Virus record (IMG/VR): IMGVR_UViG_3300027908_000012
Location: 1-44,235 of that record
Source of the DNA: a virus
Length of the DNA stretch: 44,235 nucleotides
Strand: one strand, 5' to 3'
The translations under genes were made by a program, and so were the position numbers. This document shows positions 4,088 to 43,831 of the stretch, in pieces. How positions within the stretch are numbered: the stretch's first letter is position 1; each line of letters opens with the position of its first letter. A model generated the notes under the pieces. It did no database searches. It saw nothing but the letters and a program-made list of their open reading frames with translations, and was not told where the DNA came from.

Positions 4088-4213
4088 ATGAGAAGAATCG
4101 GCGTGAGGGTTAATCCAAACGGGTTTTTCTATATGTTTCGCTGGTGGCCTTCGCCACTGAAGTACGATGGCGAGGTTTTTAGCTATTCATGGTTAGGATT
4201 TTGGTGGGGATAA
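4088..4213 (+). CDS. Possible 41-aa Trp-rich micro-ORF
   Basis: The ATG is preceded by GAGGA with a 4-nt spacer, and the ORF fills the 138-nt gap between fibre genes. It is below the ORF-track cutoff and has no recognisable homology. Confidence 0.2.
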   Translation: MRRIGVRVNPNGFFYMFRWWPSPLKYDGEVFSYSWLGFWWG

Positions 4214-4218
4214 ATGGA

Positions 4219-6450: not shown

Positions 6451-7193
6451 GAATCCTTCTGCCTGCGATTCTATTCTTGTGCTGGCCCAGTGGTTCCAAG
6501 GCTGCCCCGATTCAGTCATGCAATATCGCCTTCTTCTCTTCAGGTACCGTGCAATGCACCCTTAATGGCGTAGGCTCAAATCACGCTTTGATTCTCTCTG
6601 TCGTAACCTTCAGCTCGGCCTGCGATACCACCATTATCAGCGATACCTTTGGTTTCTCTTGGGGATCAGCAGAAGTTACTCATCAATGCACGCCGTTCTC
6701 AGGGAACCAGCTAACAATAAATATCTATTGCGCTAGAACTCAAGGCAGTAGCGGCAATGATACTTTCACGGAGACTGCAAGCGGAGCAGGCGGCTACCTA
6801 ATTGTCACAGAATATCCTAATGTGCTCGGGAGCGGTCTTACCTGTACCCCAGACGGATTCAACAGTGCTGGCAACACCACGGCTGGCCCAATCACGGAAG
6901 GCAGCATCACCACCACCAACGCCACGGATTTATTGATCGCTACCGGTTGGTATGTCGGGACGGCGAACGCTGGGTTGACTACTCCGGCCAGTTACACGCA
7001 GGAAGTCTATTACAACACCTGTTCAGGGTGCTCCAATCAGGTAGCACATATGTTTTCCGACCGCTCTCCCGGCAGCACCGGAACCTTTTCCCCGACATTC
7101 ACAATGGCGACTACCGGCACATGGCTGGGAATACAGGTGGCATTTACGCCCGCCAATCCTCCACCAGCGAAACATCGCTCGTCAATATTATGA
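6441..7193 (+). CDS. Secreted-type fibre-cluster protein with lectin/jelly-roll-like pattern (250 aa)
   Basis: The start (GTG 6441 or TTG 6447) overlaps the upstream stop. The N-terminus is (MQL)RILLPAILFLCWPSGSKA/AP. It shows weak paralogy to the C-terminal half of ORF 39845-41110. Confidence 0.6.
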   Translation: MQLRILLPAILFLCWPSGSKAAPIQSCNIAFFSSGTVQCTLNGVGSNHALILSVVTFSSACDTTIISDTFGFSWGSAEVTHQCTPFSGNQLTINIYCARTQGSSGNDTFTETASGAGGYLIVTEYPNVLGSGLTCTPDGFNSAGNTTAGPITEGSITTTNATDLLIATGWYVGTANAGLTTPASYTQEVYYNTCSGCSNQVAHMFSDRSPGSTGTFSPTFTMATTGTWLGIQVAFTPANPPPAKHRSSIL

Positions 7194-10100
7194 AGAAAAT
7201 CTTAATCATCTTCGGACTGTTAACCCTGTGGGGCGCGAAAGCGCAAGCCGCTGACATTTATTTCGCGCAAACATCGGCGGGAGGAAATACTGGAGCAAAC
7301 TGCGCCAACGCTCGCGCCCTCTCGACTCACGTCATTGGCGATGATGTGCCGGGAAACACCTCTCATCTCTGTGGAACGATCACTATCGCCGCTGGTGGAA
7401 CGGCCTTTACCTTCCTCGCCAGCGGCTCGGTCGGGAATCCCATCACTCTGAAATTTGAAACCGGAGCCAATCTGACCTCTCCAGCATGGTCTGGCTATAC
7501 CGGAGCCATCAACACCAACGGGCAAAGCAATGTGCTCATCGACGGAGGAACGACTTGCGGCTGGGTCAATAACGCTCAAGTCGCTTGCAACGGCGTCATT
7601 CATAACACTTCCGCGGGAACCAACTTTACGACGCCCTCAGGCCCGAACAATACCAATTGCAGCGGTGAAGCGGCGTTTTGCAGCGTAGGAATCTTGGCGG
7701 TAGGTGGAACCGGCATTGAAATTCGTAACCTGACCATCAAGAATCTTTACGTTCGGACTTCCTCGAGCGATCCTACCGCCGTCAATACCGGAGGGGTAGC
7801 GGGAATCACCGGGTACAGTTCAACCGGCATCCACGCTCACCACCTGATTCTCACCGATATGGGCTGGTGCATCCATGACGGAGAGACTGGAGACAATCCC
7901 GAATTTGACCATATCTATTATGCCAATATGGACCATGGCATCGCGGGAGGCAGCTTCAATCGGGCCATCACCGGCTACCTCTACCACGACAGCTTTGTCG
8001 GCTCGATGAAGAATTGGGACTCCAACAGCAATACCAATGTTCCCAATCACCATGATGGGTTTCATATCTGGGCGGCAGGAGGGACAGCTTCCCCGCAAAT
8101 CATCAATGCCTCGATTTACAACAATACCTTCAGCGCCGATCCGGGCCTGTTTGGATTTGGCTTCAACGCCTTTCTGTACATCGAAAGCTCCACGCAAAAT
8201 CTGCACGTATTCAACAACGTTTTCATTGGGGACCCGACCAATGTCGATTATGGCCGGATGCTGTGGCTGTTCGTAAATGCCTGCAACAACAATGTGGTTC
8301 CAGCGGTCTGCACCAATTCCACCGGCGCAGTCATCGTCAACAACACCCTGATCTATGCTTCAGGGACGTTTAACCTTCAGGCTTTCAGCCCCAACAGCGG
8401 CAGCCTGTATGAGAACAACGTCTTCTCCAATGCCAACACCTTTGTCAGTCTTACGCCTTCCACGACTCCGACCATAGACCACAACTATTATGAATTGGCT
8501 ATCGCCGGGCCAAATTCTTCCTGGAACTGGAATGGTGTCACGACGAACAGCTTCTCGGCGTGGCAAGGAACGGGCTCGGATACGCACGGCTTCTACAGCG
8601 CCTCTACAGGCTTCGTGAATAGCGATGGAACGCTGAAAGTCAATTCCCCGGCTATAAATCTGGGAGCTAATCTTACCTCACTGGGCATTACGGCTCTAAA
8701 CTCCGACAGAAACGGCAATCCCCGGCCTGCTACCGGTCCTTGGACTTCCGGGGCTATCAACTTTGGCACTGCCCCGCCAACGCCGGGGCTCTCGATTAGC
8801 TCTCCACCATCCTTCGGCTCGGTAAATGTTGGTTCCAGCAGCTCGCCAATAACTCTGACCGTGACGAGCAACGGAACTGCGACCGCTACGCTCGGTAATC
8901 CGATTGCCACTTTCAGCGACCCTGAATTTGCCCTGACTGGAGGAACTTGCAGTATCAATGAATCTTTGCCGTCAGGCTCAACTTGTACGCTAATCATTGT
9001 TTTTACGCCCACTTCTGCCGGCGTCAAGAACGCGACCGTTACGGTAGGGGCCAATGCTACAGCCTCAGCGGGACTTTCTGGCACCGGTTCGGCGGGAACC
9101 GCTTCCATGAGCGTTGCGCCGACAAGCTGGAACTTCGGCAACGTGACTCAAGGAACAGCCAGCACGGTTGAGACTTTCCTCATCACCAATACTGGCTCAA
9201 CCAGCATCACCATGTCCAGCCCGGTAACTACTTTCTCAGGCACCAACGCGGGAGACTTTTCGCTCTCGGGCACGCCCGCGAATAATTGCACTTCTGGCCT
9301 GATTCTCGCTCCCGGTGGAACTTGCCAGAAATCCATTATCGTTACGCCCTCCATCATTGGTGCTGAATCGGCTACAGCGACATTCTCGGCCACGACAGCA
9401 AGCACGTCAGCGAGTTTGACCGCCACTGGTACACCAGTCTCCAATCCCAGCCTGCTCGTCACACCCCGACCGCTAATTTTATCCAGCACCATTCAAGGGC
9501 AGACCAGCCCCACTGTTACAGGAACTGTTACAAACAACGGTAACGTCTCGGTAACATTAGGAAGCACCCCCATAACGATCAGCGGTACCTTGGCCGCGGA
9601 CTTCTCGCTTAGTTCCAATGCCTGCACGCCAGCTTTGGTGTTGATAGTCGGCGGTACTTGCACCTTCAACGTCAGCGCGGTGCCCTCAGGCATAACTTTG
9701 GAGCAAGTCAACCTGACTGCTACGGCTACGAATACCACCAACACCGTGGCTTTGCAGATTCAGGGCTTGCCGATCGCTCCTATCCCCGCTCCGTCTCCGG
9801 CTTTAATCATTTCCACCCAGATAGACCTGTTCCCCATGCCCAAAGTAACCATCACAGGTCAGAATTTCGTGGTTGGCAAAACGCAAATTACGATAGATGG
9901 AACACCGCAGGCTACGGTCTGCTCTGCGACTAGCTGCACGACGCAATCAGCGTCTTGGGGGTTACTTCCCCGGTTTTGGGGTAATTTCTCACGCTATTGG
10001 TGTCAAATGACGGCGGCTCTGGCGTGCGGCTCAATTCATGCCATTCCTGCCGCAACACCTCGTAAGGCACCAGACCGCCATCAAGCCAGATATATTCAAT

Positions 10101-10366
10101 TATTCCCAGGGGAGTCTTCAGAAATCTTCGGTGGACGCTCATCGAACCCTCCCTTTCTTGGGCCGGATGAGTTCTTTATAGCACAAATGCTGGTTAAAAC
10201 GCGGCTGTGGCTACCCAGCGCTCACCACCCACGCAATTCTGAGCCTTCGCAGTGCAGAATCCCATCCCGGTCAGCCCAACAAGGAAGAAGGGGATTAGTC
10301 TGTATCGTCGGCCCAGAGGGTTTGATATCAAGTGGCATCACCTCGCTTTCTGGAGAGGGAGTCTAG
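7190..10366 (+). CDS. Right-handed beta-helix tailspike/depolymerase-like protein with three Ig-like repeats and an IPT-like domain; true 3' end uncertain
   Basis: ATG 7190 forms an ATGA overlap with the upstream stop. The signal-like N-terminus is MKKILIIFGLLTLWGAKAQA/AD. Parallel beta-helix repeat signatures are present (NLTIKNLYV, IYNNTF, VFNNVFIG, IVNNTLIY, YENNVFSN). Three repeats of about 105 aa span nt 8786-9766 and resemble choice-of-anchor-D/ASH-type Ig folds. The last roughly 137 codons (9953-10366) have an unrelated R/W/P/C-rich composition. Confidence 0.7.
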   Translation: MKKILIIFGLLTLWGAKAQAADIYFAQTSAGGNTGANCANARALSTHVIGDDVPGNTSHLCGTITIAAGGTAFTFLASGSVGNPITLKFETGANLTSPAWSGYTGAINTNGQSNVLIDGGTTCGWVNNAQVACNGVIHNTSAGTNFTTPSGPNNTNCSGEAAFCSVGILAVGGTGIEIRNLTIKNLYVRTSSSDPTAVNTGGVAGITGYSSTGIHAHHLILTDMGWCIHDGETGDNPEFDHIYYANMDHGIAGGSFNRAITGYLYHDSFVGSMKNWDSNSNTNVPNHHDGFHIWAAGGTASPQIINASIYNNTFSADPGLFGFGFNAFLYIESSTQNLHVFNNVFIGDPTNVDYGRMLWLFVNACNNNVVPAVCTNSTGAVIVNNTLIYASGTFNLQAFSPNSGSLYENNVFSNANTFVSLTPSTTPTIDHNYYELAIAGPNSSWNWNGVTTNSFSAWQGTGSDTHGFYSASTGFVNSDGTLKVNSPAINLGANLTSLGITALNSDRNGNPRPATGPWTSGAINFGTAPPTPGLSISSPPSFGSVNVGSSSSPITLTVTSNGTATATLGNPIATFSDPEFALTGGTCSINESLPSGSTCTLIIVFTPTSAGVKNATVTVGANATASAGLSGTGSAGTASMSVAPTSWNFGNVTQGTASTVETFLITNTGSTSITMSSPVTTFSGTNAGDFSLSGTPANNCTSGLILAPGGTCQKSIIVTPSIIGAESATATFSATTASTSASLTATGTPVSNPSLLVTPRPLILSSTIQGQTSPTVTGTVTNNGNVSVTLGSTPITISGTLAADFSLSSNACTPALVLIVGGTCTFNVSAVPSGITLEQVNLTATATNTTNTVALQIQGLPIAPIPAPSPALIISTQIDLFPMPKVTITGQNFVVGKTQITIDGTPQATVCSATSCTTQSASWGLLPRFWGNFSRYWCQMTAALACGSIHAIPAATPRKAPDRHQARYIQLFPGESSEIFGGRSSNPPFLGPDEFFIAQMLVKTRLWLPSAHHPRNSEPSQCRIPSRSAQQGRRGLVCIVGPEGLISSGITSLSGEGV
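9930..10142 (-). CDS. Small antisense gene (70 aa) embedded in the 3' tail of the spike ORF
   Basis: The ATG is preceded by GGGAGGG (5-nt spacer) and by an extended -10 element TGcTATAAA about 32 nt upstream. The first roughly 40 residues (MSVHRRFLKTPLGIIEYIWLDGGLVPYEVLRQEWHEL) look globular. Confidence 0.4.
   Translation of the reverse strand: MSVHRRFLKTPLGIIEYIWLDGGLVPYEVLRQEWHELSRTPEPPSFDTNSVRNYPKTGEVTPKTLIASCS
10175..10183 (-). promoter_or_regulatory. Extended -10 promoter element (TGcTATAAA) for the antisense gene 9930-10142
   Basis: The reverse complement of 10175-10183 reads TGCTATAAA, and the distance to the ATG is plausible. There is no good -35 hexamer. Confidence 0.35.
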
Positions 10367-35842: not shown

Positions 35843-35998
35843 TCAATACAGCAAAATACGTAAGCCCTCTGGGAAGGCTAAACTCCCTGTGATGTAGAGG
35901 TAAAGCTCTCCGCGACCGCCGCAAGGTTGGTCAGAAACTCCTGCCGAATCGGAAACGGCAAAGGCTACACGTTTCCAATTCTTCGACAGGAGCCCTCC

Positions 35999-37210
35999 TT
36001 GGCAAATACAGAACTTACGATAGGAATGATCACCCGCGAGACCTCTCGCGTCCTCAAAAACAACGTAGTTTTCACCAAATATGTGAATCGCGAGTACGAC
36101 GATTACTTCGCCAAATCCGGCGCGAAGATCGGCGTAGTACTGAACATCAGGAAGCCGGTTCGCTCGATTTACTCTTCCGGCCAAGGCTTGATTCTTCAGG
36201 ATTTGACCGAAACAAGCGTGCCGGTTGCGCTGACCACGCAGTATCAGCGGTCTTTTGCGGTCACTTCTCAAGACCTTCTGCTAAATATTGACGATTTCAC
36301 GACTCGCTTTGTGTCGAAGCACGTCACTTCGCTGGCCAACCAAGTGGATGATGACGGACTCTCGCAATACATCAACGTCTACAACGAAGTAGGCACTCCG
36401 GGAACTCCTCCGACCACCATCGACACTTATCTGGCTGCCGGCGAGCTCCTCAACAACGAAGCGGCCCCTATGGACCCCCGCAGAATCGTTATGGGGCCGA
36501 CCATGAACCGCAAGATTGTGGGCGCTTTGGCTGGCTTGCTCAACCCGCAGCGGAAGATCAGCGAGCAATATGCCAAGGGCATGATGGCTGCCGACACTCT
36601 GGGCTTTGACTGGTACATGGACCAGAACGTAGGCCTACAAGTCGTAGGGCCTCAGGGTGGAACTCCTACCGTCAACGCCACCGCGGGGCAGACCGGATCA
36701 AGCATCGTTACTACTGGTTGGACCGCTGCTGTTGGTCTCCGTTTGAATAAGGGCGACGTTATCCAGTTGGCTGGCGTATTTGCCGTCAATCCCCAGAACA
36801 GGCGTTCCACCGGATATCTCCGCAACTTTGTCGTAACCAGCGCATTCAGCTCAGACGGTTCCGGCAATGGAACCATCAACATTTCGCCTTCCATCATCAC
36901 CAGCGGGCCTTTCCAGAACGTAACCGTAGCTCCCGCAGCTAACGCAGCCATTACCGTTAACGGCGCTGCCAACACCTCTTCTGTGCGAGGGTTGGCGTTC
37001 CATCCCGACGCTTTCATCTTTGTCACCGCCGACTTGCCGCTGTTCCAGGGCTTGGACAAGGCCGACCGCGTAACTGACCCAGACCTGAAGATAAGCATTC
37101 GTTCCATTAGGGACTACGACATTAATACAGATCGCGCTCCCCTCCGTCTCGACTTCCTTGGCGGCTGGGCAACGTTCTATCCCGAATTGGCAGTAAGAAT
37201 CGCAAGTTAG
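35999..37210 (+). CDS. Major capsid (coat) protein, P22 coat family
   Basis: TTG 35999 is preceded by CAGGAG (6-nt spacer). ITRETSRVLKNNVVFTKYVNREYDDYFAKSGAKIGVVLNIRKP matches the family N-terminus as I recall it. The KGDVIQLAGV...ISPSII..GPFQNV region matches P22 gp5 RGDKISFAGV...ITPKPV. Confidence 0.85.
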   Translation: MANTELTIGMITRETSRVLKNNVVFTKYVNREYDDYFAKSGAKIGVVLNIRKPVRSIYSSGQGLILQDLTETSVPVALTTQYQRSFAVTSQDLLLNIDDFTTRFVSKHVTSLANQVDDDGLSQYINVYNEVGTPGTPPTTIDTYLAAGELLNNEAAPMDPRRIVMGPTMNRKIVGALAGLLNPQRKISEQYAKGMMAADTLGFDWYMDQNVGLQVVGPQGGTPTVNATAGQTGSSIVTTGWTAAVGLRLNKGDVIQLAGVFAVNPQNRRSTGYLRNFVVTSAFSSDGSGNGTINISPSIITSGPFQNVTVAPAANAAITVNGAANTSSVRGLAFHPDAFIFVTADLPLFQGLDKADRVTDPDLKISIRSIRDYDINTDRAPLRLDFLGGWATFYPELAVRIAS

Positions 37211-37276: not shown

Positions 37277-37936
37277 ATGGCAATTACCGCAACAACGCTT
37301 TCTGGGGCAATTACCTCGACGCAGACCAGCTTTGGTGTGGCTAGCGTAACCGGCATTACTGGCCCAAATCAGCAGACTGGTACTGGCATCACCATCCTCA
37401 AGATTGATCAGGAATTTATTTATGTGGCTGCTGCTCCGGTAGGCACTACGCTGCCTATTGTTTTGCGTGGCTATAACGGCTCGGCTGCGGCGGCCCACGT
37501 ATCGGGCGCACAAGTGCAGATCGGCGCTACCCCGGCTGACTTCCCTACCGATCAGGCAGAACTCACTGGCGGGAACACCACTTTACAGCAGGTTACTTAT
37601 GGCGCGAGAAATCAGCAGGCCATTTTCCTGTCTGGTACCGCTGACGCGCTGGCCGCTGGTGTGGCGGCTTTCTACGTAGTCAAGACTGGATCGGCTGATG
37701 CCATGACTTTGGCTGCTCCAACTGCCGGGCAAGAAGGCAATATCATCGAGGTTTGGTCGGATACCGCTTTCGCTCACACCATCACCGCCACAACTTTGCT
37801 GGCCAACGGCACTGCCTTGAAAACGACTGTAACTTTCCCGGCGTTTCGTGGCGCTGGCATCGTTCTCCGCGTTTGCAATTTGGTTTACCACGTCATGAGC
37901 CAAGGACCTTCTGCCGGAGCCGTTGTTCTTACCTAG
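37277..37936 (+). CDS. Capsid-associated protein (219 aa), paralog A
   Basis: GGAGAAG RBS. Its C-terminal roughly 105 aa is paralogous to ORF 37994-38386. The N-terminal region contains ILKIDQEFIYV...VLRGYNGSAAAAHVSGAQV. A decoration or head-fibre role is inferred from position only. Confidence 0.6.
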   Translation: MAITATTLSGAITSTQTSFGVASVTGITGPNQQTGTGITILKIDQEFIYVAAAPVGTTLPIVLRGYNGSAAAAHVSGAQVQIGATPADFPTDQAELTGGNTTLQQVTYGARNQQAIFLSGTADALAAGVAAFYVVKTGSADAMTLAAPTAGQEGNIIEVWSDTAFAHTITATTLLANGTALKTTVTFPAFRGAGIVLRVCNLVYHVMSQGPSAGAVVLT

Positions 37937-37993: not shown

Positions 37994-38386
37994 ATGGCGA
38001 GAGGACTTACAAACTTAGGCGCAGTAACCAACGATGTGATCAATCAGGTATGCGACGGCGATGCCATGCAGGGCGTCCCGGTTCTACTTACCGGAACGGC
38101 GGATGTTATCCCTGCGCACGTCAACGGCAATTACATCGTTAAAACCGGTTCAGCCGATGCCATGACTCTAGCGGCTCCCACGGTAGGCGCCGACGATAAT
38201 TTGAGCATCGCGATTTTCTCAGACACCCTTTTCGCCCACACCATCACCGCGACTGCGCTTTTCGCCAACGGCACGGCGCTAAAAACCACCGCTACTTTCG
38301 CTGCTTTTCGTGGGGCGGGGATTATTTTGCGGGCCTACAACGGAGTTTGGCAGGTAGTCAGCACTTCCGCAGTCACATTAACGTGA
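37994..38386 (+). CDS. Capsid-associated protein (130 aa), paralog B
   Basis: AAGGAG RBS. It shares VKTGSADAMTLAAPT.G....I..SDT.FAHTITAT.L.ANGTALKTT.TF.AFRGAGI.LR with paralog A. Confidence 0.6.
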   Translation: MARGLTNLGAVTNDVINQVCDGDAMQGVPVLLTGTADVIPAHVNGNYIVKTGSADAMTLAAPTVGADDNLSIAIFSDTLFAHTITATALFANGTALKTTATFAAFRGAGIILRAYNGVWQVVSTSAVTLT

Positions 38387-38743: not shown

Positions 38744-39094
38744 ATGGCTAATCAAGAATATCCGAAGTGGCTGTATCACGCGACCGAAGGCTCCAGGCTG
38801 GTGGAGACGGCTGCGGAAGAAAAAGAACTGGGGCCGGGCTGGGAGATTCATCCCGAAAAAGCCAAGGCCGAGCACATCAAGAAAGTCAACGAGCTGAACG
38901 CCAAGGCCGCTGAAGATCAGAAAAAGGCCGAGGAAAAAGCTGCGCAGGACAAAGCTAAAGCGGAAGCCGACCTTGCCAAACAGTTAGCGGCCCAGAATCC
39001 CAAAAATGCTGCTGCTGCCAAAGCTGCCGCCGACAAAAAGGTTGCTGAAGATAAGGCCGCCGCAGAAAAGAAAGCCGCTGAAGCAAAAGAATAA
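38744..39094 (+). CDS. Small protein with YPKWLYH N-terminal motif and Ala/Lys/Glu-rich tail (116 aa)
   Basis: AAAGGAG RBS. The N-terminal roughly 40 aa look globular, and the remainder is AKAEA/KKAAE low-complexity sequence. Confidence 0.6.
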   Translation: MANQEYPKWLYHATEGSRLVETAAEEKELGPGWEIHPEKAKAEHIKKVNELNAKAAEDQKKAEEKAAQDKAKAEADLAKQLAAQNPKNAAAAKAAADKKVAEDKAAAEKKAAEAKE

Positions 39095-39104
39095 GGGCTA
39101 ACTG

Positions 39105-39848
39105 ATGACCGGTCTCGATTTGATTTCCAGCGCCATGCGCCTTATTGGAGCTTTGGCGAGTGGCGAGACCCCTACCGCTGCTGAAGCCAACGACGGACTA
39201 TCTTGCCTCAACGACATGTTGGATTCATGGCAAGCCGAGCGGTTGATGATTTTCACCATTTCGATTCAGGAATTTCCGCTCGTTCCCGGACAGCAAGTCT
39301 ACACCATGGGACCAGGAGGCAATTTCAACACCGCACGTCCAGCGAAAATCGAGCGCATGAGCATCGTTTCGCTGCAAAACCCCACGCAACCCCTGGAACT
39401 GCCGATCACCATGTACACCGACCGCGACTGGCAGCACGTTCCGGTAAAAGTCGGGATTACCAGCACTCTTCCGCTGAACGTTTACGATGACGGAGCGTAC
39501 CCACTAAGAAATCTAAGTTTCTGGGTGATTCCCAACATCGTCAATAACGTGCGGATTTATTCCTGGAACGCGCTGAACAATTTTCCCGACCTCGTAACCG
39601 ACATTACCTTTCCTCCAGCCTACAAAGAAGCGATTCGCTACAACCTTGCCGCTCGACTGATAGCCGAAATGCCGGGAGAGTACGCGCAAATCACGGTTCA
39701 AGCGGTTATCGGGCTGGCCACCGAGTCATTGGCTCGCGTAAGAATCATGAACCTTCCTACTATTCAGGCATTTGTTCCTCCGCTGCCGGGAGATTCCAAG
39801 GGCGGGCACTACGACTACCGCTCTGACTCGATTGTAGGCAGCAATTGA
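39105..39848 (+). CDS. Head-to-tail adaptor, P22 gp4-like
   Basis: LISSAMRLIGALASGETPTAAEANDGLSCLNDMLDSW aligns with P22 gp4 [39 protein letters not shown] as I recall it. It precedes the gp10-like gene. Confidence 0.65.
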   Translation: MTGLDLISSAMRLIGALASGETPTAAEANDGLSCLNDMLDSWQAERLMIFTISIQEFPLVPGQQVYTMGPGGNFNTARPAKIERMSIVSLQNPTQPLELPITMYTDRDWQHVPVKVGITSTLPLNVYDDGAYPLRNLSFWVIPNIVNNVRIYSWNALNNFPDLVTDITFPPAYKEAIRYNLAARLIAEMPGEYAQITVQAVIGLATESLARVRIMNLPTIQAFVPPLPGDSKGGHYDYRSDSIVGSN

Positions 39849-41110
39849 CTCGCGTGAAATTAGCTGGCGGCAGCTACACCAGTCAATCGGTTAACGCCGA
39901 TGCGCAGAGAACTGTCAATCTCTATCCCGAGCAGATTGAATCGGGCGACGGCACGACTGATATTGCACTTTACCCGACTCCTGGGCTCAAAAAGTTTGCT
40001 GTCTTTGTGGCGCCGGGAGCTTGTCTCTCTATCGCCAAAACTCCCAATGGAACATTCACTCAGGGGCAAAACGGAGCGACGTATTCAGTGGTAGTCACGA
40101 ACGACACGAGCTCCGCAAGCCTGGGGCTGGTGACTGTTACCGAAAATGTGCCCACTGGACTGACTTTCGTTTCCATGGCGGGAGCTGGTTGGACCGTCGT
40201 TGGCAATGTAGCAACACGCAGCGATGCTCTTGCGCCGGGAGCGAGTTATCCAACTCTGACCGTCACCGTAAATGTAGCCTCCAACGCTCCATCCATGGTG
40301 AATAACAATGTCTCCATAGCCGGTGGGGGCTGCACGCAAATCAATAATGCGCAAAACGCTACAGCGATTGTGGCTTCTGGCGGTGGCGGGTCAATCATCA
40401 GTGTAGCTAGTCCGATTATCGGCTCACCGTTTACCAGCAGTACGGTAATGCTTCTTGAAGCTGGAGCCAGTTTTCCGCTGCCCTTGGCCGGTCCGGTTGT
40501 AGTTCTTCTGCCCCTGTTTTATAGCCAGATTACCGACCCTTCCACGCAGCCTGTGCCGGTTGTGAACAGCATCTCGGATACCACCGGAGCTACTTGGACG
40601 GCAATAAAATCTCCGGTAAGTTTTCTGCCCGAACACACCACTGGCTTCGGTGTTTGCACTTATCAGCTTTATTCTGCCTCCTTCCCTGCGGGCATTCCGG
40701 TCAACTGGCAAGTCACTATCAATCTGGCCGGTCCCAGCAGCATAGGATTTGTTCCCCACACATTGCTCATGGTTTTCACGGCTTGCACCGGCGTGGATGC
40801 CAGCGCGTTTAATCTGATCGCTCAGCCGGGCGCCGTCACCGGCGCACCGATCACCACTTCCGCGCCAAGAGTAATCGTTACCATCGCCAGCGGACCTGTC
40901 TCTGCCCCTTCTGGAGTACCGCTTTATTGCCAATCGGGAAGCGATCAGGGACTGGGAGCAGCGATCTACAGTTCCACGGGATTTTTCCCCAACAGTTCAA
41001 CTCTTGAGCATGTCGATCTGCAACCGGCTGGAACTTATAACCCTACCTGGGGCGGAACGGCAACTAACGGAAGCATCGCTTTAAGCACTGTCGCGGTGGT
41101 GCCGGCATGA
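39845..41110 (+). CDS. Chimeric protein: gp10-like N-terminal segment + DUF11-type Ig-like repeat + lectin-like C-terminal domain (421 aa)
   Basis: The start overlaps the upstream gene's stop by 4 nt. Residues 1-60 (NADAQRTVNLYPEQ...IALYPTPGLKKF) resemble the P22 gp10 N-terminus. ATYSVVVTN...VTVTENVPTGLTFVSMAGAGWT...LAPGASYPTLTVTVNV matches the conserved repeat domain (DUF11). The C-terminal half resembles ORF 6441-7193. Confidence 0.6.
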   Translation: MTRVKLAGGSYTSQSVNADAQRTVNLYPEQIESGDGTTDIALYPTPGLKKFAVFVAPGACLSIAKTPNGTFTQGQNGATYSVVVTNDTSSASLGLVTVTENVPTGLTFVSMAGAGWTVVGNVATRSDALAPGASYPTLTVTVNVASNAPSMVNNNVSIAGGGCTQINNAQNATAIVASGGGGSIISVASPIIGSPFTSSTVMLLEAGASFPLPLAGPVVVLLPLFYSQITDPSTQPVPVVNSISDTTGATWTAIKSPVSFLPEHTTGFGVCTYQLYSASFPAGIPVNWQVTINLAGPSSIGFVPHTLLMVFTACTGVDASAFNLIAQPGAVTGAPITTSAPRVIVTIASGPVSAPSGVPLYCQSGSDQGLGAAIYSSTGFFPNSSTLEHVDLQPAGTYNPTWGGTATNGSIALSTVAVVPA

Positions 41111-42702
41111 GCGTGCGCGGCGAATTCCGCATTGATACGCCCAACGGCACGCGAGCCTTTGCCGTGGCCAGTTCCAATTTATTTGAAATCTTCGCCAACG
41201 GAACATCGAACTTCTTAGGCGCGGTGGGCAATGACGGATTTTTAGTGTCCTTTGCCGGCAGCGCCCAGCAAGTCCTGATTGCCTCGGCAGGAACGGCTTA
41301 TGTCTTTGATTTGACGCTCAACACTTTGACCACGATTCCCGGGGCAACGTTCTCTGGCGCGGTATCTGTCGTGGGCTATTGCGATGGGTTCTTTCTGGCT
41401 CTCATTGCCAGCTCCAACACTTTTTACGTTTCCGGGCCTCTCGATGCTACGGACTGGACCACCAATGGAGCCTCTCTCGTTTCTGTTTTTCCAGACAACT
41501 TATTGGGAATGCTGGTTGACCATCGGGAAGTGTGGTTCTGGTCAGCAACCCGAGCTGTTGTTTACTATGACTCCGGCAACATCTTCCCCTTCGACGTGGT
41601 TCCCGGTGGGTTTATCGAGCAAGGGCTGGGAGCCCGATTATCTCCATCTCAATTAGACAACACGATTTTCTGGCTGGGGGCTGATTCTCGCGGATCAGCA
41701 GTTGTTTGGCGGGCGCAAGGCTATACACCCAGCAGAGTCAGTAACCATGCTATCGAATACGCCATGCAAGGCTACGCAAGAATTGATGACGCCATCGGCT
41801 TCAGCTTCCAGATGGATGGGCACTATTTCTATCAATTGTACTTCCCGACTGCCAATGCGACATGGCGCTACGACGTGGCAACCAATATGTGGCACGAAGT
41901 CGGTTACTGGAACCTTGCTACGGGAACTTTCATCGCGCACAAAAGTCAGGTACATGTCTTTGTTTTCGGCAAGCATCTGGTGGGCGATTGGGGCAGCGAC
42001 ACGATTTATGAAATGGCGATTCCCTTCTATTCCAATGGAGTCTGGAAGTTTGCCGATGATGACGGCAACCCCATTCGCAGAGTCCGAAGGATGCCGCATT
42101 TATCGAAGGATCAGAAATTACAAGCGCATCACCAGTTGCAGGTGTATATCGAGAGCGGTTTGGGGCCGACGCCTCCCTTACCTGCGACAGAAGCGCCTAC
42201 CACACTATTTCTAGCCGATCCAAATGGAGTGGTCTGGGCTGTAGGGGTTACGGATGCGGGAGACCTTGAAACCAGTCTGGGACTTGGAACCGCGGGAACC
42301 ATTTTTATCAACGATCCCAGCGGCCTTACTTCCTGGCAATTACAGGTGGATGTAGTGGGCGTGCTTTCCACCACTGCTGTTGGACTCGGAAATTATCCGC
42401 AAAGTTACACGCTTTCTTCTGGGGCGGTTCGCTGGATTCTGCAAGTCGATAACGTGGGAGTACTAGAAACCAATTTCAAGGAACCGGTGACCCGCGCTCC
42501 GCAGATCAATCTGCGCTGGAGCGATGACGGAGCGCATTCCTTCAGCAATGAATATTCCATGAGCATGGGCAAGACCGGAGAGTTTTCCAAGCGGGTGATG
42601 TGGCGAAGGCTCGGACGTTCGAGAGACCGCGTGTATGAAGTGAATGGCAGCGATCCCGTTCCCTATCGCTTAATCAGTGCGTTTCTGGAAGTGGGGGCCT
42701 GA
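41107..42702 (+). CDS. Tail hub / packaged-DNA stabilisation protein, P22 gp10-like, apparently lacking the N-terminal ~57 residues
   Basis: ATGA overlap upstream. MSVRGEFR aligns with P22 gp10 around VSRGVEY. The C-terminus FSKRVMWRRLGRSRDRVYEV aligns with gp10 YDKRVLWKRVGRIRRLIGFKL. Both alignments are from memory. Confidence 0.6.
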   Translation: MSVRGEFRIDTPNGTRAFAVASSNLFEIFANGTSNFLGAVGNDGFLVSFAGSAQQVLIASAGTAYVFDLTLNTLTTIPGATFSGAVSVVGYCDGFFLALIASSNTFYVSGPLDATDWTTNGASLVSVFPDNLLGMLVDHREVWFWSATRAVVYYDSGNIFPFDVVPGGFIEQGLGARLSPSQLDNTIFWLGADSRGSAVVWRAQGYTPSRVSNHAIEYAMQGYARIDDAIGFSFQMDGHYFYQLYFPTANATWRYDVATNMWHEVGYWNLATGTFIAHKSQVHVFVFGKHLVGDWGSDTIYEMAIPFYSNGVWKFADDDGNPIRRVRRMPHLSKDQKLQAHHQLQVYIESGLGPTPPLPATEAPTTLFLADPNGVVWAVGVTDAGDLETSLGLGTAGTIFINDPSGLTSWQLQVDVVGVLSTTAVGLGNYPQSYTLSSGAVRWILQVDNVGVLETNFKEPVTRAPQINLRWSDDGAHSFSNEYSMSMGKTGEFSKRVMWRRLGRSRDRVYEVNGSDPVPYRLISAFLEVGA

Positions 42703-42959
42703 TGGCGAAAAACGCTCGCATATCGCCGTTCGATACCCGCACCAAGTTCATTGAACAGTCAGAACACGGCAGCGGAATCGCCAAACCGCACACTCAATGG
42801 TTGCAGAAAGCTGGAGTCCTGCTCAATGGCTCTGCCCAAATAGTAGATGTTCCGGCAACTTTAACTTCTCCCGGTATCTATGGCGACATGGCTTTTGACG
42901 CTGCCTTTAAGTATTTCTGCATCGCTCCGAACACTTGGAAGAAAGAAGCGTGGTCGTGA
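42702..42959 (+). CDS. Hypothetical tail-module protein (85 aa)
   Basis: TGATG overlap with the hub gene. Confidence 0.5.
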   Translation: MAKNARISPFDTRTKFIEQSEHGSGIAKPHTQWLQKAGVLLNGSAQIVDVPATLTSPGIYGDMAFDAAFKYFCIAPNTWKKEAWS

Positions 42960-43831
42960 GTTTCCTTGCTCCACTGATCGGATTAGGCGGCGGGATTCTT
43001 AGCGGAATCCTCGGCAGTGGCGCGGCCAAGGACGCTGCACAGGCTCAAGCTGGTGCCGCTGGCCAAGCGGCCAATAACGCCTCGAATCAAGCAGCGGCTT
43101 CCAACACTTACCAGAAAGGAATTGCCTCTCAGCAGACTGGATTACTCAGTCCGTATGCCACAGCAGGGCAAGGGGCGGTATCGAATCTCGGACAACTCCT
43201 CGCTCCAGGCGGTCAACTCACCCAAGGCTATGGAAGCTTCACCGCGCCTACAGGAGTCACGGAACAGAACGATCCCGGCTATCAGTTCAGACTTACGCAG
43301 GGACTCAATGCCTTGCAGAACTCCGCAGCGGCTCGGGGAGGCTTGCTCTCCACCGGCACAGCGAAAAACATCAACGATTATGCGCAAAATTCAGCTTCCA
43401 ACGAGTACAGCAATGTCTATAACAGAGCCTTGGGCACGTATCAGACGAATCAGGCCAACTTTAATCAGAATAACAACAATCTTTATAGCCGTCTGTCTGG
43501 GCTTTCGGGGCAAGGGTTACAAGCGGGAAGTTCACTAGGCGGAATGCTGCAATCGGGAGCGCAAAACGTCGCAGGCATCAACGCCAACGAAGCGCAGCAG
43601 TACGGTTCAGCGATTCAGAACCAAGGGGCGGCACAAGCCAGCGGAATCATCGGCGCGAACAACGCATGGCAAGGTGCGCTCGGTGGAGCAGTAAACAATT
43701 TAGGCGGATTCCTGTCTGCGCAATTCCCGATGAATAGCAGCGGTTACGGCGGTGGAGGCGGAAATAGCGGCACGCCTTGGTATAACGCCAGCGGCTACGG
43801 CAACGCGGCCATCGGAAGCGGGGGAAGCTAA
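42956..43831 (+). CDS. Internal virion / ejection-like protein (291 aa) with N-terminal hydrophobic Gly-rich segment
   Basis: GTG 42956 forms a GTGA overlap with the upstream stop. The N-terminus is SFLAPLIGLGGGILSGILG. The protein is G/A/Q/N-rich and contains DPGYQFRLTQGLNAL..SAAARGGLLS, a motif common in podophage internal proteins. Confidence 0.55.
   Translation: MSFLAPLIGLGGGILSGILGSGAAKDAAQAQAGAAGQAANNASNQAAASNTYQKGIASQQTGLLSPYATAGQGAVSNLGQLLAPGGQLTQGYGSFTAPTGVTEQNDPGYQFRLTQGLNALQNSAAARGGLLSTGTAKNINDYAQNSASNEYSNVYNRALGTYQTNQANFNQNNNNLYSRLSGLSGQGLQAGSSLGGMLQSGAQNVAGINANEAQQYGSAIQNQGAAQASGIIGANNAWQGALGGAVNNLGGFLSAQFPMNSSGYGGGGGNSGTPWYNASGYGNAAIGSGGS

Follow-up and report, generated by a model that had tools for sequence, protein, structure and literature searches.

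How might a phage complete its tail hub when the hub gene is broken into two consecutive open reading frames, and what is the role of the extra module carried between the two pieces? This question arises from the window, the whole 44,235-nt stretch of viral DNA analysed here (record IMGVR_UViG_3300027908_000012), whose source is a P22-like soil podophage that probably infects Acidobacteriota. The gene order in the window is P22-like, with adaptor, hub, small gene and ejection protein following one another on the plus strand. Specifically, the head-to-tail adaptor gene (39105..39848, 247 aa, P22 gp4-like) matches phrog_12985 (E 4e-40) and phrog_637 'head-tail adaptor Ad3' (E 4e-5), and its TGA stop overlaps the TTG start codon of ORF1 (39845-41110, 421 aa). 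ORF1 is followed by ORF2 (41107-42702, 531 aa), a tail hub without its N-terminus that comprises a six-bladed β-propeller, a repeat insert and a C-terminal extension. Downstream lie a small gene of 85 aa (42702..42959), which matches phrog_17312 'tail protein' over residues 38-83 (E 5.5e-8) and whose C-terminus is similar to those of phage tail proteins, and a DNA-ejection protein gene (42935..43831, 298 aa, phrog_598 'DNA ejection', E 5.8e-20). In Rhodoferax phage P26218 and in MW202483, the gene that precedes the hub occupies the position of this adaptor gene, and the former also has a gene annotated 'DNA ejection' downstream of its hub. G+C content is fairly even across the locus (0.51-0.57). 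Further large candidate fibre genes lie elsewhere in the window (4189-6450 and 6947-10366), and the main receptor-binding protein could therefore be a product other than that of ORF1.

A preliminary description of this DNA had claimed that a P22 gp10-like hub gene is split over ORF1 and ORF2, and the sequence features on which it drew are all present where it placed them. When the two ORFs are searched separately, as it had suggested, both match PHROG 578 ('head closure Hc3', the P22 gp10 family, 486 profile positions), and they do so consecutively. In particular, residues 2-57 of ORF1 match positions 4-58 (E 9e-7) and residues 3-378 of ORF2 match positions 60-419 (E 1.9e-76), and thus the two ORFs cover adjacent, non-overlapping parts of one family profile. 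The family, which includes P22 gp10 and Sf6 gp8, corresponds to Pfam PF11134 (Phage_stabilise) and to structures 8eap, 8u10, 7sg7, 7eeq and 9vyg; no hmmscan match to PF11134 was recovered. Alignment to the hub of Rhodoferax phage P26218, which is unsplit, places ORF1 over the first ~56 residues and the start of ORF2 right after them. ORF2 is not extendable upstream, because its frame contains no start codon between the preceding stop and 41107. Neither of the two outcomes that had been named as speaking against the split was found: full-length hub homologs are not contained in ORF2, their first ~57 residues aligning to ORF1, and ORF1 residues 1-57 are clearly similar to the hub-family profile. 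The split of the hub family over ORF1 and ORF2 is real and far above chance, and the two ORFs jointly represent a single member of that family, in which the cut falls where the N-terminal extension meets blade 1; a literature search found no published account of a split hub. The N-terminal hub fragment (N-fragment), delimited by PHROG 578 and by alignment to the N-termini of unsplit hubs, comprises residues 1-58 of ORF1 (39845..40018, plus strand). It is under purifying selection (dN/dS 0.21 at dS 0.75, compared with the related locus L007), and the N-fragments of split hubs keep most of the positions conserved in unsplit hubs, including G8, Y11, N25, Y27, E29, E32, P44, P46 and G47.

For structure prediction, the N-fragment and ORF2 were joined in silico into a covalent, single-chain fusion (AF2). 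The fusion model has a mean pLDDT of 92.1 and a pTM of 0.83, and within it the N-fragment is predicted to form five β strands at pLDDT 82-95; when ORF1 is modelled alone, residues 1-57 stay below pLDDT 50 and form no strands, and the gain in confidence upon fusion may partly stem from a deeper alignment (49 vs 12 sequences). The comparison with P22 gp10 that had been proposed gives a superposition of the covalent fusion model (8eap_D, TM 0.85), that with Sf6 gp8 gives TM 0.82 (7sg7_S), and across the P22 gp10, Sf6 gp8, Pam1 and Pan3 hubs the target-normalised TM scores lie between 0.82 and 0.85. Additionally, a PDB profile search with ORF2 matches the hub chains 9vyg_M and 7eeq_1, the C-terminal 70 aa included. 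In Sf6, the hub has an apical lamin-like domain that is built jointly by its N-terminal and C-terminal extensions, which emanate from blades 1 and 6, and that docks between two head-to-tail adaptor subunits (PMC9728967). This architecture implies that the break sits at a domain connector and that ORF2 alone would lack half of the docking domain. By analogy with the Sf6 structure (PMC9728967), the N-fragment is the counterpart of the N-terminal extension that contributes to the apical, adaptor-docking domain.

The break recurs at the same hub site in 12 independent metagenomic loci, which stem from assemblies that differ in sample and pipeline; the two halves lie 734-1980 nt apart. The truncated hub starts that were read directly align at one point (9 of 9), 31 of the 120 closest hub homologs begin M-[SA]-[VI]-R-G, and, wherever the contig reaches far enough, an N-fragment gene lies upstream of the truncated hub in the 12 split loci. 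This arrangement has been kept while the split hubs diverged to about 50% identity. Varied cargo is fused to the first hub piece in some loci, and in others this piece forms a separate small protein; the latter is the case in L014 (167 aa), L060 (72 aa) and L061 (57 aa), where one to three whole genes lie between the N-fragment and the hub. In these loci, therefore, the halves must work as separate chains, and such stand-alone N-fragments mean that the split does not by itself need attached cargo. The search for unsplit hub genes in relatives, also proposed beforehand, was successful, as exemplified by Rhodoferax phage P26218; in some relatives the hub is uninterrupted with no insert at the site, and the unsplit hubs examined keep the N-terminal segment in all cases where contig or gene call extends that far. 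Of the 120 homologs, 26 have in-frame inserts at the site of the break (most ~210-240 aa, four ~55 aa), so the site tolerates bulky domains. Many relatives have thus independently been found to carry a cut at this hub position, and it is preserved among them. The preliminary description had read the locus as a module inserted into the hub gene; an extra module does lie between the halves, but a single insertion into this genome is rejected, because the hub tree mixes split hubs with uninterrupted ones and with ones that have in-frame inserts, and because cargo varies widely. Error-like breaks were seen in some related contigs, as frameshifts in the ORF1-type gene of L006 and as a stop plus a frameshift in the nanopore contig L062.

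Behind the N-fragment, ORF1 carries a DUF11/CLIPPER Ig-like domain (residues ~59-176; 40019..40372, plus strand). Residues 61-172 match PF01345 (DUF11, now CLIPPER; E 9e-8, 32.9 bits, cutoff 24.6), bearing out the DUF11-type Ig-like repeat described earlier, and Foldseek matches the domain to 9ifr, the structure of a CLIPPER domain, with a target-normalised TM of 0.70 at 28% identity. CLIPPER is a CnaA-like stalk domain of fibrillar adhesins (bioRxiv 10.1101/2025.04.25.650565). The residues K65, E100 and N154 represent a candidate isopeptide triad: all three are conserved in the 11-12 homologs that cover those columns, except that one sequence has D in place of E100. The stalk is followed by an all-β C-terminal domain, a putative binding tip (residues ~177-421 plus stop; 40373..41110, plus strand). 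This domain of ~240 aa is predicted by AF2 to contain β strands throughout, with pLDDT about 51-87 per 10-residue block, yet the label 'lectin-like' that it had been given is not borne out by any match: Pfam, PHROG and NCBIfam yielded no match to it, and its structure matches are generic only, with no recognisable receptor-binding or enzymatic fold among them. Across 12 ORF1-type proteins, pairwise identity averages 0.65 in the N-fragment, 0.61 in CLIPPER and 0.20 in the C-domain. At L007, the hub is 87% identical, but the C-domain of its ORF1-type protein, P0031, has no evident similarity to that of ORF1 in alignment. Cargoes in relatives also include LamG (P0066) and DUF2793, which we take to be families of phage fibres and lectin-like binding proteins. 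The cargo behind the N-fragment is swapped between close relatives, and the identity gradient together with the swap beside an 87%-identical hub fits the conserved-anchor, variable-tip pattern of receptor-binding proteins.

At the ORF1/ORF2 junction (41095..41110, plus strand, read from the sequence), a Shine-Dalgarno-like GGTGG (41095-41099) lies 7 nt upstream of the ORF2 ATG, and the ORF1 stop and the ORF2 start overlap as ATGA (41107-41110). Junctions in relatives are equally tight, reading TAAATG in L003 and L060 and GTGA in L004, and in L012, L014 and L015 the gene coordinates overlap by 4 nt. No terminator-like or promoter-like site was found at the junction, regional counts of such sites being at or below shuffled expectation; likewise, no intron-like RNA family was found at the locus, and no direct or inverted repeats at the nucleotide level were found flanking the insert. 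The peptide TPNGT occurs twice on the plus strand, in the first strand region of the CLIPPER domain (40040-40054) and in a length-variable loop of the first hairpin of hub blade 1 (41137-41151). As had been reported, four of its five codons differ, all four synonymously, but its reading as a junction duplication left by an insertion is rejected: one or more common 5-mers arise in 26% of composition-preserving shuffles of the ORF1 and ORF2 proteins (the real pair has two, TPNGT and QGLGA), and the match is missing from other split pairs, which read FTINGRSFAV or FSITGRTFSV at the hub side. Additionally, the K-T before the first copy is part of 'IAKT..G.F', the conserved DUF11 start in ORF1-type and cellular repeats, and the second copy is confined to the closest hubs (P0123, P0124), with ING, ITG, KVGG and so on elsewhere in split hubs. 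The recurrence of TPNGT is best explained by chance.

We consider it likely that the hub consists of the products of two coupled genes, and that the N-fragment of ORF1 completes the hub in trans and tethers adhesin-like host-recognition fibres. An exchangeable fibre, for which we infer a role in host binding, is thus probably attached to the tail by a piece of the hub. Indirect support for the notion, already put forward in the preliminary description, of an N-terminal hub fragment that serves as anchor for a displayed module comes from the dN/dS of 0.21 in the N-fragment, its retained conserved positions and its predicted folding when joined to ORF2, as well as from the split in 12 loci with tight junctions and the pairing within the Sf6 apical domain (PMC9728967). 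We propose that ORF1 and ORF2 are translationally coupled, and that the stop/start overlap would hold the two halves near 1:1. During tail assembly, the ORF1 N-fragment would pair with the C-terminal extension of ORF2, and the paired extensions would rebuild, from two chains, the apical β-sandwich that in Sf6 docks between adaptor subunits. One ORF1 molecule would be held per hub subunit, six in all, by a tether that is non-covalent but integral. A rigid, possibly isopeptide-locked CLIPPER stalk would push the variable tip outward, and ORF1 would act as a monomeric adhesin-like fibre with a part in host recognition. The gene split would leave the cargo C-terminus free, and recombination could swap stalk-plus-tip modules or whole genes in the interval bounded by the conserved N-fragment and the hub core; cargo exchange would then need no reading frame kept through the hub.

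The hub split could also be real, and the N-fragment could complete the hub, while CLIPPER and the variable domain form something other than a host-recognition fibre, such as a structural decoration that, for instance, stiffens the tail against the capsid or other fibres, a protective shield, or a domain that binds soil particles or polymers in the environment. The absence of an identifiable receptor-binding or enzymatic fold in the C-domain, the other large candidate fibre genes in the window and the N-fragments without cargo in some relatives would be in keeping with this, but we regard it as rather improbable: the 0.20 identity and the cargo exchange at 87%-identical hubs resemble diversifying host-range modules rather than braces, CLIPPER followed by a distal domain is an adhesin architecture, and the alternative cargoes LamG and DUF2793 are presumably phage-fibre and lectin-like binding families. 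As for a single chain of N-fragment, CLIPPER, tip and hub, produced by a -1 frameshift or stop bypass at ATGA, relatives with in-frame-insert hubs do exist, and ORF2 lies in the -1 frame relative to ORF1, as with any ATGA overlap. Such recoding is nevertheless very unlikely, given that the junction contains no slippery heptamer, that no intron-like RNA family was found and that junction types vary among relatives (TAAATG in frame 0; GTGA or ATGA in frame -1); in L014, L060 and L061, moreover, recoding could not join halves that are parted by complete genes.

Equally hard to credit is that ORF2 alone constitutes a shortened working hub and the N-fragment is a relic heading a separate, otherwise attached fibre gene, since the N-fragment is under purifying selection with most family-conserved residues kept, its gene precedes the truncated hub in the 12 split loci wherever the contig allows, and the segment is retained in the examined unsplit hubs and makes up half of the adaptor-docking domain in Sf6. 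The breaks in L006 and L062 could be taken to suggest an assembly or sequencing error, or a defective phage whose gene was inactivated recently by mutation; against this, the same architecture appears in 12 independent assemblies, where the stop/start junctions are clean and the ORFs to either side intact, and it has been kept though the split hubs diverged to about 50% identity, which leaves such an artefact with almost no likelihood.

The two-gene hub resembles P22 gp10 and Sf6 gp8 in its sequence profile, its predicted propeller and apical domain, and its place between the adaptor and ejection-protein genes. Unlike these single polypeptides (~440-470 aa), it has its first ~57 residues on a separate protein with ~360 aa of cargo, and ORF2 has a ~100-aa repeat insert ahead of the C-terminal extension. 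Phage 'genes in pieces' include those for T4 topoisomerase gp39/gp60, the split DNA polymerase genes of some T4-like phages and the ribonucleotide reductase gene of phage Aeh1, which is split by a homing endonuclease gene. As in these cases, one ancestral gene is present as two neighbours whose products are expected to reassemble into one fold. However, those genes encode enzymes and are interrupted by a short spacer or a selfish endonuclease gene, whereas here a virion structural hub is split by structural or adhesin-type cargo that is often fused in frame to the first fragment, and the split-hub state is widespread with variable cargo.

A conserved N-terminal anchor followed by a variable C-terminal domain is a general principle of podophage receptor-binding proteins (PMC10386132). 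Like proteins with the P22/Sf6 tailspike head-binding domain or the T7 gp17 N-terminal domain, ORF1 combines a conserved N-terminus with a hypervariable, swapped distal part. Known podophage anchors are dedicated domains on the surface of a complete hub or adaptor, whereas the anchor here would be a piece of the hub fold, and, unlike trimeric spikes, the ORF1 fibre is probably monomeric (Ig stalk) and would be present in six copies. In line with bacterial fibrillar adhesins, the ORF1 CLIPPER domain is ~50-60% identical to repeats of cell-surface proteins, including those of Acidobacteriota MAGs, keeps the expected isopeptide Lys/Glu/Asn positions and is followed by a distal non-stalk domain. 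Distinct from those adhesins, which have tandem arrays and reside on the cell surface, ORF1 has one stalk domain, no signal peptide and no cell-wall anchor, and its CLIPPER domain would be attached to a phage tail; it also lacks the cysteine pair (GWTC....CTRSD) of cellular CLIPPER repeats. The in-frame-insert hubs P0185, P0195, P0147 and that of the L019 prophage likewise carry a β-rich accessory domain at the same site, but each is a single chain in which hub sequence flanks the insert on both sides, whereas in the window the insert ends at a stop and the hub restarts.

The repeat insert of ORF2 is a second variable site of the hub. It consists of three ~30-aa β repeats (residues ~358-462; 42178..42492, plus strand; consensus L.D..G..W...V.D.G.L.T), which sit between the propeller and the C-terminal extension and are predicted in the AF2 fusion model as three groups of three strands (block-mean pLDDT 80-96). 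Such repeats are missing from 434-aa hubs such as that of L004 and are present and conserved in hubs of 530-600 aa; some relatives of 700-900 aa are alignable to ORF2 only over the propeller.

The tail hub of this phage is encoded by two adjacent genes, ORF1 (39845–41110, 421 aa) and ORF2 (41107–42702, 531 aa), which jointly cover one ancestral hub protein without overlap. Specifically, the P22 gp10 family profile PHROG 578 ("head closure Hc3", 486 positions) matches ORF1 residues 2–57 with its positions 4–58 (E 9e-7) and ORF2 residues 3–378 with its positions 60–419 (E 1.9e-76), which bears out the resemblance of the ORF1 N-terminus to gp10 noted in the preliminary description. The gene order of the window is P22-like, running from coat (35927–37210) through adaptor and hub to ejection. 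The head-to-tail adaptor gene (39105–39848) lies directly upstream of ORF1, and ORF2 is followed by a small tail-protein-like gene and then by a DNA-ejection gene; the hub thus sits directly 3' of the adaptor and 5' of the needle and ejection genes, as does the P22 gp10-type tail hub. ORF1 starts with a TTG overlapping the adaptor TGA, and the ATG of ORF2, with GGTGG 7 nt upstream, overlaps the ORF1 TGA (ATGA). Judged from the sequence, these tight stop/start junctions would fit coupled translation. Because the ORF1 stop codon (41108–41110) separates the halves and ORF2 lies in a different frame that allows no upstream extension, the window hub is a split variant and not a canonical member of the family. 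The G+C content is fairly even across the locus, in which no promoter, terminator, transposon-like ends or compositional anomaly were found.

Comparison with unsplit hubs locates the break. Against the Rhodoferax phage hub P26218, ORF1 supplies "GGSYT..NLYPE..TPGLKKF" and ORF2 resumes at "VRGEF..AFAV..", and in two metagenomic hubs, P0125 and P0126 (67–69% identical to ORF2), the N-terminal fragment directly precedes the same sequence. The unsplit genes that the preliminary description had proposed to seek in related genomes therefore exist, and their N-termini align to ORF1, so that full-length hubs would not fit within 41107–42702 alone, as it had held. Additionally, a profile of the relatives matches the solved hubs 9vyg_M (cyanophage Pan3) and 7eeq_1 (Pam1) in the N-terminal part and in the last ~70 residues. 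A hmmscan search with the Pfam copy used returned no PF11134 match for ORF2, for the fusion described below, for P0125 or for the hubs of L001 and L004, nor for the annotated Rhodoferax phage hub, and hub assignment therefore relies on PHROG 578 and structure. Precomputed database annotation does give PF11134 for P0121, a protein identical to ORF2, and for neighbouring hubs, a disagreement on the same proteins that matters to users of either source.

An AlphaFold2 (AF2) model was built for an artificial single chain joining ORF1 residues 1–58 to ORF2 residues 2–531, not for the two natural chains. This fusion model (pLDDT 92.1, pTM 0.83) matches P22 gp10 (8eap_D) with a Foldseek TM of 0.85 and an rmsd of 3.8, the Pam1 and Pan3 hubs with a TM of 0.85, and Sf6 gp8 (7sg7_S) with a TM of 0.82, all target-normalised. 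For this artificial chain, the predicted fold is a six-bladed β-propeller with an apical domain that the N- and C-terminal extensions make up together. The N-terminal fragment is unstructured in the model of ORF1 alone (pLDDT below 50) and forms five confident strands in the fusion model, the alignments behind the two AF2 models differing in depth.

Between the propeller and the C-terminal extension, ORF2 residues ~358–462 (42178–42492) comprise three β repeats of ~30 aa each with the pattern L.D..G..W...V.D.G.L.T, a segment absent from 434-aa relatives. Some relatives that match ORF2 over the propeller only are 700–900 aa long; if their extra length sits at the repeat site, each of the two connectors leading to the apical domain would be a hot spot for insertions.

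Downstream of the hub fragment, ORF1 carries a cargo of two parts. Residues 61–172 match DUF11/CLIPPER (PF01345) over profile positions 2–112 of 114 with 32.9 bits (gathering cutoff 24.6; E 9e-8). DUF11 has lately been renamed CLIPPER, a CnaA-like Ig domain with an intramolecular Lys–Asn isopeptide bond that builds the stalks of fibrillar adhesins (bioRxiv 10.1101/2025.04.25.650565). The AF2 model of this domain (block-mean pLDDT 75–85) matches the CLIPPER crystal structure 9ifr with a target-normalised Foldseek TM of 0.70 at 28% identity, and the domain is accordingly predicted to adopt the CnaA-like Ig fold. In the 11–12 homologs covering these columns, the candidate triad K65, E100 (replaced by D in one sequence) and N154 is conserved, with a spacing close to that of K715/D748/N806 in 9IFR; a sequence comparison of the ORF1 domain with 9IFR gave no match and hence no residue-level alignment. 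The remainder of ORF1 (residues ~177–421) is predicted by AF2, with moderate confidence, to be all-β. It has no match in Pfam, PHROG or NCBIfam, and Foldseek against PDB and BFVD returned only generic Ig/β-sandwich matches and uncharacterised phage proteins; "lectin-like" is therefore a guess for this domain. With the in-frame inserts of unsplit relatives, ORF1-type C-terminal domains share a weak hhalign match (E 9e-4, probability 23%).

In sequence, the ORF1 CLIPPER domain is closest to repeats of bacterial repeat proteins; of those that are named, two come from Acidobacteriota metagenome-assembled genomes (MAGs) of Bryobacteraceae and Pyrinomonadaceae. The cellular repeats P0063 and P0106 contain a conserved cysteine pair, GWTC....CTRSD, that is lost in all ORF1-type phage copies (GWTVVGNVATRSD; compared with window 40019–40372) and retained in a 583-aa phage protein of L009. 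This loss could be an adaptation to cytoplasmic folding.

The two-gene arrangement is not peculiar to the window. ORF1-type proteins, in which the N-terminal fragment is followed by CLIPPER and then by an unrelated C-terminal domain, recur in many metagenomic contigs (P0017, P0024, P0031, P0046, P0052, P0057, P0066–68, P0105 and P0111). Wherever the neighbourhood is readable (L003, L004, L007 and L008), a truncated hub starting M-[SA]-[VI]-R-G directly follows, with TAAATG or GTGA at the boundary. Other loci carry other cargo. The N-terminal fragment is fused directly to other β domains without CLIPPER in L012, L013 and L015; in L014 it is joined to a small domain and separated from the hub by three further genes; in L059 and L060 it stands alone as a 72-aa protein followed by a 500-aa DUF2793 gene and the hub; and in L061, from a more distant lineage, a 57-aa fragment precedes three genes and then the hub. 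The identical 72-aa mini-protein is found on eight contigs. Altogether, 12 loci are broken at this hub site, with 734–1980 nt between the halves.

Of the 120 hub homologs closest to ORF2, 60 have no interruption; a further 31 begin at the split point, and another 26 contain an in-frame insert there, in most cases of ~210–240 aa and in four of ~55 aa. A neighbour-joining tree of the hub core, drawn without support values, interleaves split, insert and plain states and places the uninterrupted P0125 and P0126 as the nearest non-split relatives of the window hub. Going by this interleaving, the state seems to have changed repeatedly, or cassettes to have been exchanged through recombination between conserved flanks; a single origin of the split is not supported by the same unsupported tree. 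A nucleotide search of the phage collection gave no match, and a protein search returned distant hubs only; the one among them for which a full alignment was made, that of Rhodoferax phage P26218, is unsplit.

Conservation falls along ORF1-type proteins. Across 12 of them, mean identity is 0.65 in the N-terminal fragment, 0.61 in CLIPPER and 0.20 in the C-terminal domain. In L007 the hub is 87% identical to ORF2, and the C-terminal domain of its ORF1-type protein P0031 has no evident similarity to that of ORF1. A conserved N-terminal part with a variable distal part exchanged between relatives is the pattern of receptor-binding fibres.

Among the ORF1-type genes with DNA sequence at hand, the closest (67% identity) lies in L006 (1679–2937; IMGVR_UViG_3300043673_000028) and is broken into three overlapping frames, which reflects either a set of sequencing errors or a decaying cargo gene; the hub 3' of it is intact up to where the contig ends. 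The stand-alone mini-proteins P0241 (L060 1498–1716) and P0242 have Trp/Gly-rich ends, PFGWGINWGGAAWGDGH and PFGWGTNWGGNWGAGFNP, and such a tail might serve as the peptide on which the DUF2793 fibre, encoded separately 3' of the mini-protein, docks. A further candidate stand-alone fragment, in L062, was discarded as belonging to an error-ridden nanopore contig. Between the hub halves of L014 (1347–3504) lie the N-terminal fragment fused to a ~110-aa domain, a 112-aa gene apparently paralogous to that domain, a gene whose 84-aa product contains VTQTGNEIPAQL-type repeats, and one for a 350-aa β protein, which together make up a whole multi-gene cassette inside a split hub. In the unsplit relative L002 (MW202483.1), an opposite-strand endonuclease gene (2280–2768) lies between the hub gene and an upstream gene that is probably the adaptor, though the record says "portal protein", and the annotated hub start omits the first ~22 family residues.

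In the window the hub is split at the connector that leads from the N-terminal extension to blade 1. Because the break falls there, ORF2 comprises the whole propeller but, of the docking domain, just the C-terminal half; the first 57 residues of ORF1 provide the other one. The two chains would assemble by fold complementation, which would bring one ORF1 molecule to each hub subunit. The CLIPPER stalk would leave the hub at a surface-exposed point, since relatives tolerate in-frame domains of up to ~330 aa there; one such case is a prophage in a 532-kb Acidobacteriota contig (L019), whose hub has a 331-aa in-frame insert at the split site. A plausible advantage of the break is that it frees the C-terminus of the cargo, so that adjacent termini would not be needed and modules or whole genes could be exchanged without a reading frame being kept through the hub. 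A putative role of the ORF1 cargo in host adhesion is suggested by the gradient from conserved anchor to variable tip, by a stalk of the adhesin type and by what other cargoes consist of (LamG, DUF2793), the main alternative being that the cargo is decorative and does not bind the host. More broadly, we see an even chance that the connector is a general plug-in site within a large clade of P22-like podophages from soil that are associated with Acidobacteriota. Their hubs would routinely be broken there into a ~57-aa "key" peptide and a body, and what lies in between would range from one domain to a cassette of three genes; the key would act as a universal strand-complementing adaptor through which cargo becomes part of the tail at six copies.

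Other explanations of the broken gene fare less well than a two-chain hub. Recoding is unlikely to join the halves into a single chain: the junction lacks a slippery site, junction types vary among relatives, and in some of them whole genes separate the hub halves. An artefact or a dead gene is excluded by the recurrence of the split and by an arrangement kept at divergence down to about 50% identity. That the N-terminal fragment is a relic is contradicted by its structural role and by purifying selection, with a dN/dS of 0.21 at a dS of 0.75 against L007; in line with this, the fragment retains most of the positions that unsplit hubs conserve (G8, Y11, N25, Y27, E29, E32, P44, P46 and G47).

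How the insert arrived is a separate matter. The preliminary description took the peptide TPNGT, encoded at 40040–40054 and 41137–41151 with four of five codons differing, all synonymously, as a duplication marking the insertion junctions. This does not hold up: at least one common 5-mer occurs in 26% of shuffled ORF1/ORF2 pairs (the real pair has two), other split pairs contain no TPNGT-like match, and no nucleotide repeats flank the insert. Moreover, the first copy belongs to the conserved CLIPPER start ("IAKTHSGNF" in relatives) and the second to a length-variable hub hairpin, and TPNGT was therefore rejected as an insertion footprint. A homing endonuclease or intron between the halves likewise found no backing, as the insert consists of CLIPPER and the β domain, with no endonuclease family match in Pfam, PHROG or NCBIfam and no intron RNA; an Rfam E-value scan of 39000–43000 returned no intron or other relevant RNA element.

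The nearest hubs in reference genomes come almost all from Acidobacteriota MAGs, including Ca. Sulfotelmatobacter, Ca. Angelobacter, Terriglobales, Acidiferrales and Bryobacteraceae, and some lie inside contigs of 150–530 kb, which fits integrated prophages. At these reference loci the N-terminal fragment could be located in 38 of 43 cases, and in those 38 the hubs are unsplit except for the in-frame insert of L019 and the uncertain L058; the split form occurs mainly in metagenomic phage contigs of ~40 kb. Acidobacteriota are an abundant soil phylum, and to our knowledge their phages have seen little experimental study.

The P22-like tail hub is viewed as a conserved structural core of one chain that separate spikes bind via dedicated head-binding domains. 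Its components, namely the gp10-type hub, the CLIPPER domain, fibres with an anchor and a variable tip, and split genes of phages, are all known; we know of no earlier case that combines them, with an essential structural fold cut where domains connect, the small piece of it anchoring exchangeable cargo, and the split form coexisting with in-frame-insert and uninterrupted states. No description of a split hub was found in the full-text literature on the hub, on splits and on Acidobacteriota phages, although absence from the library searched is not proof. A naturally two-chain hub whose small chain anchors a swappable adhesin-like fibre would be a new attachment route for host-recognition modules on a short tail, and would show how a single structural connector ties together the insertion of domains, the fission of genes and the exchange of cassettes. 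Should the connector really be a general plug-in site, it would give phages a hitherto unnoticed means of attaching and exchanging host-range modules, with a fragment of an essential structural fold as the anchor in place of a dedicated binding domain, and split-protein display on phage tails would have a precedent in nature. The split hub would offer phage structural and evolutionary biologists, to whom it should be of considerable interest, a concrete, testable example of fold complementation in virion assembly, and its split site may be a permissive one for engineering display or host-range changes in podophages.

Several other genes of the window deserve mention. The 753-aa ORF at 4189–6450 shows weak similarity to the C-terminal domain of a phage depolymerase, and the 1139-aa ORF at 6947–10366 has choice-of-anchor D and Ig-like domains and a "hydrolase" PHROG match. 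As main fibres, the two have weak family hints only and no solved relatives; their products could be further fibres or spikes. Just 3' of the coat gene, two adjacent genes (37277–37936 and 37994–38386), neither with a firm family match, share a clearly paralogous C-terminal domain of ~90 aa (..KTGSADAMTLAAPT..FAHTITAT.L.ANGTALKTT.TF.AFRGAGI.LR..). The 219-aa protein of this pair has weak PHROG matches only, to a family of unknown function and to a tail protein; the pair may encode head decoration or head-completion proteins. Upstream of the adaptor, a 116-aa ORF (38744–39094) has a Lys/Ala/Glu-rich, low-complexity C-terminal half (..AEDQKKAEEKAAQDKAKAEADLAKQ..).
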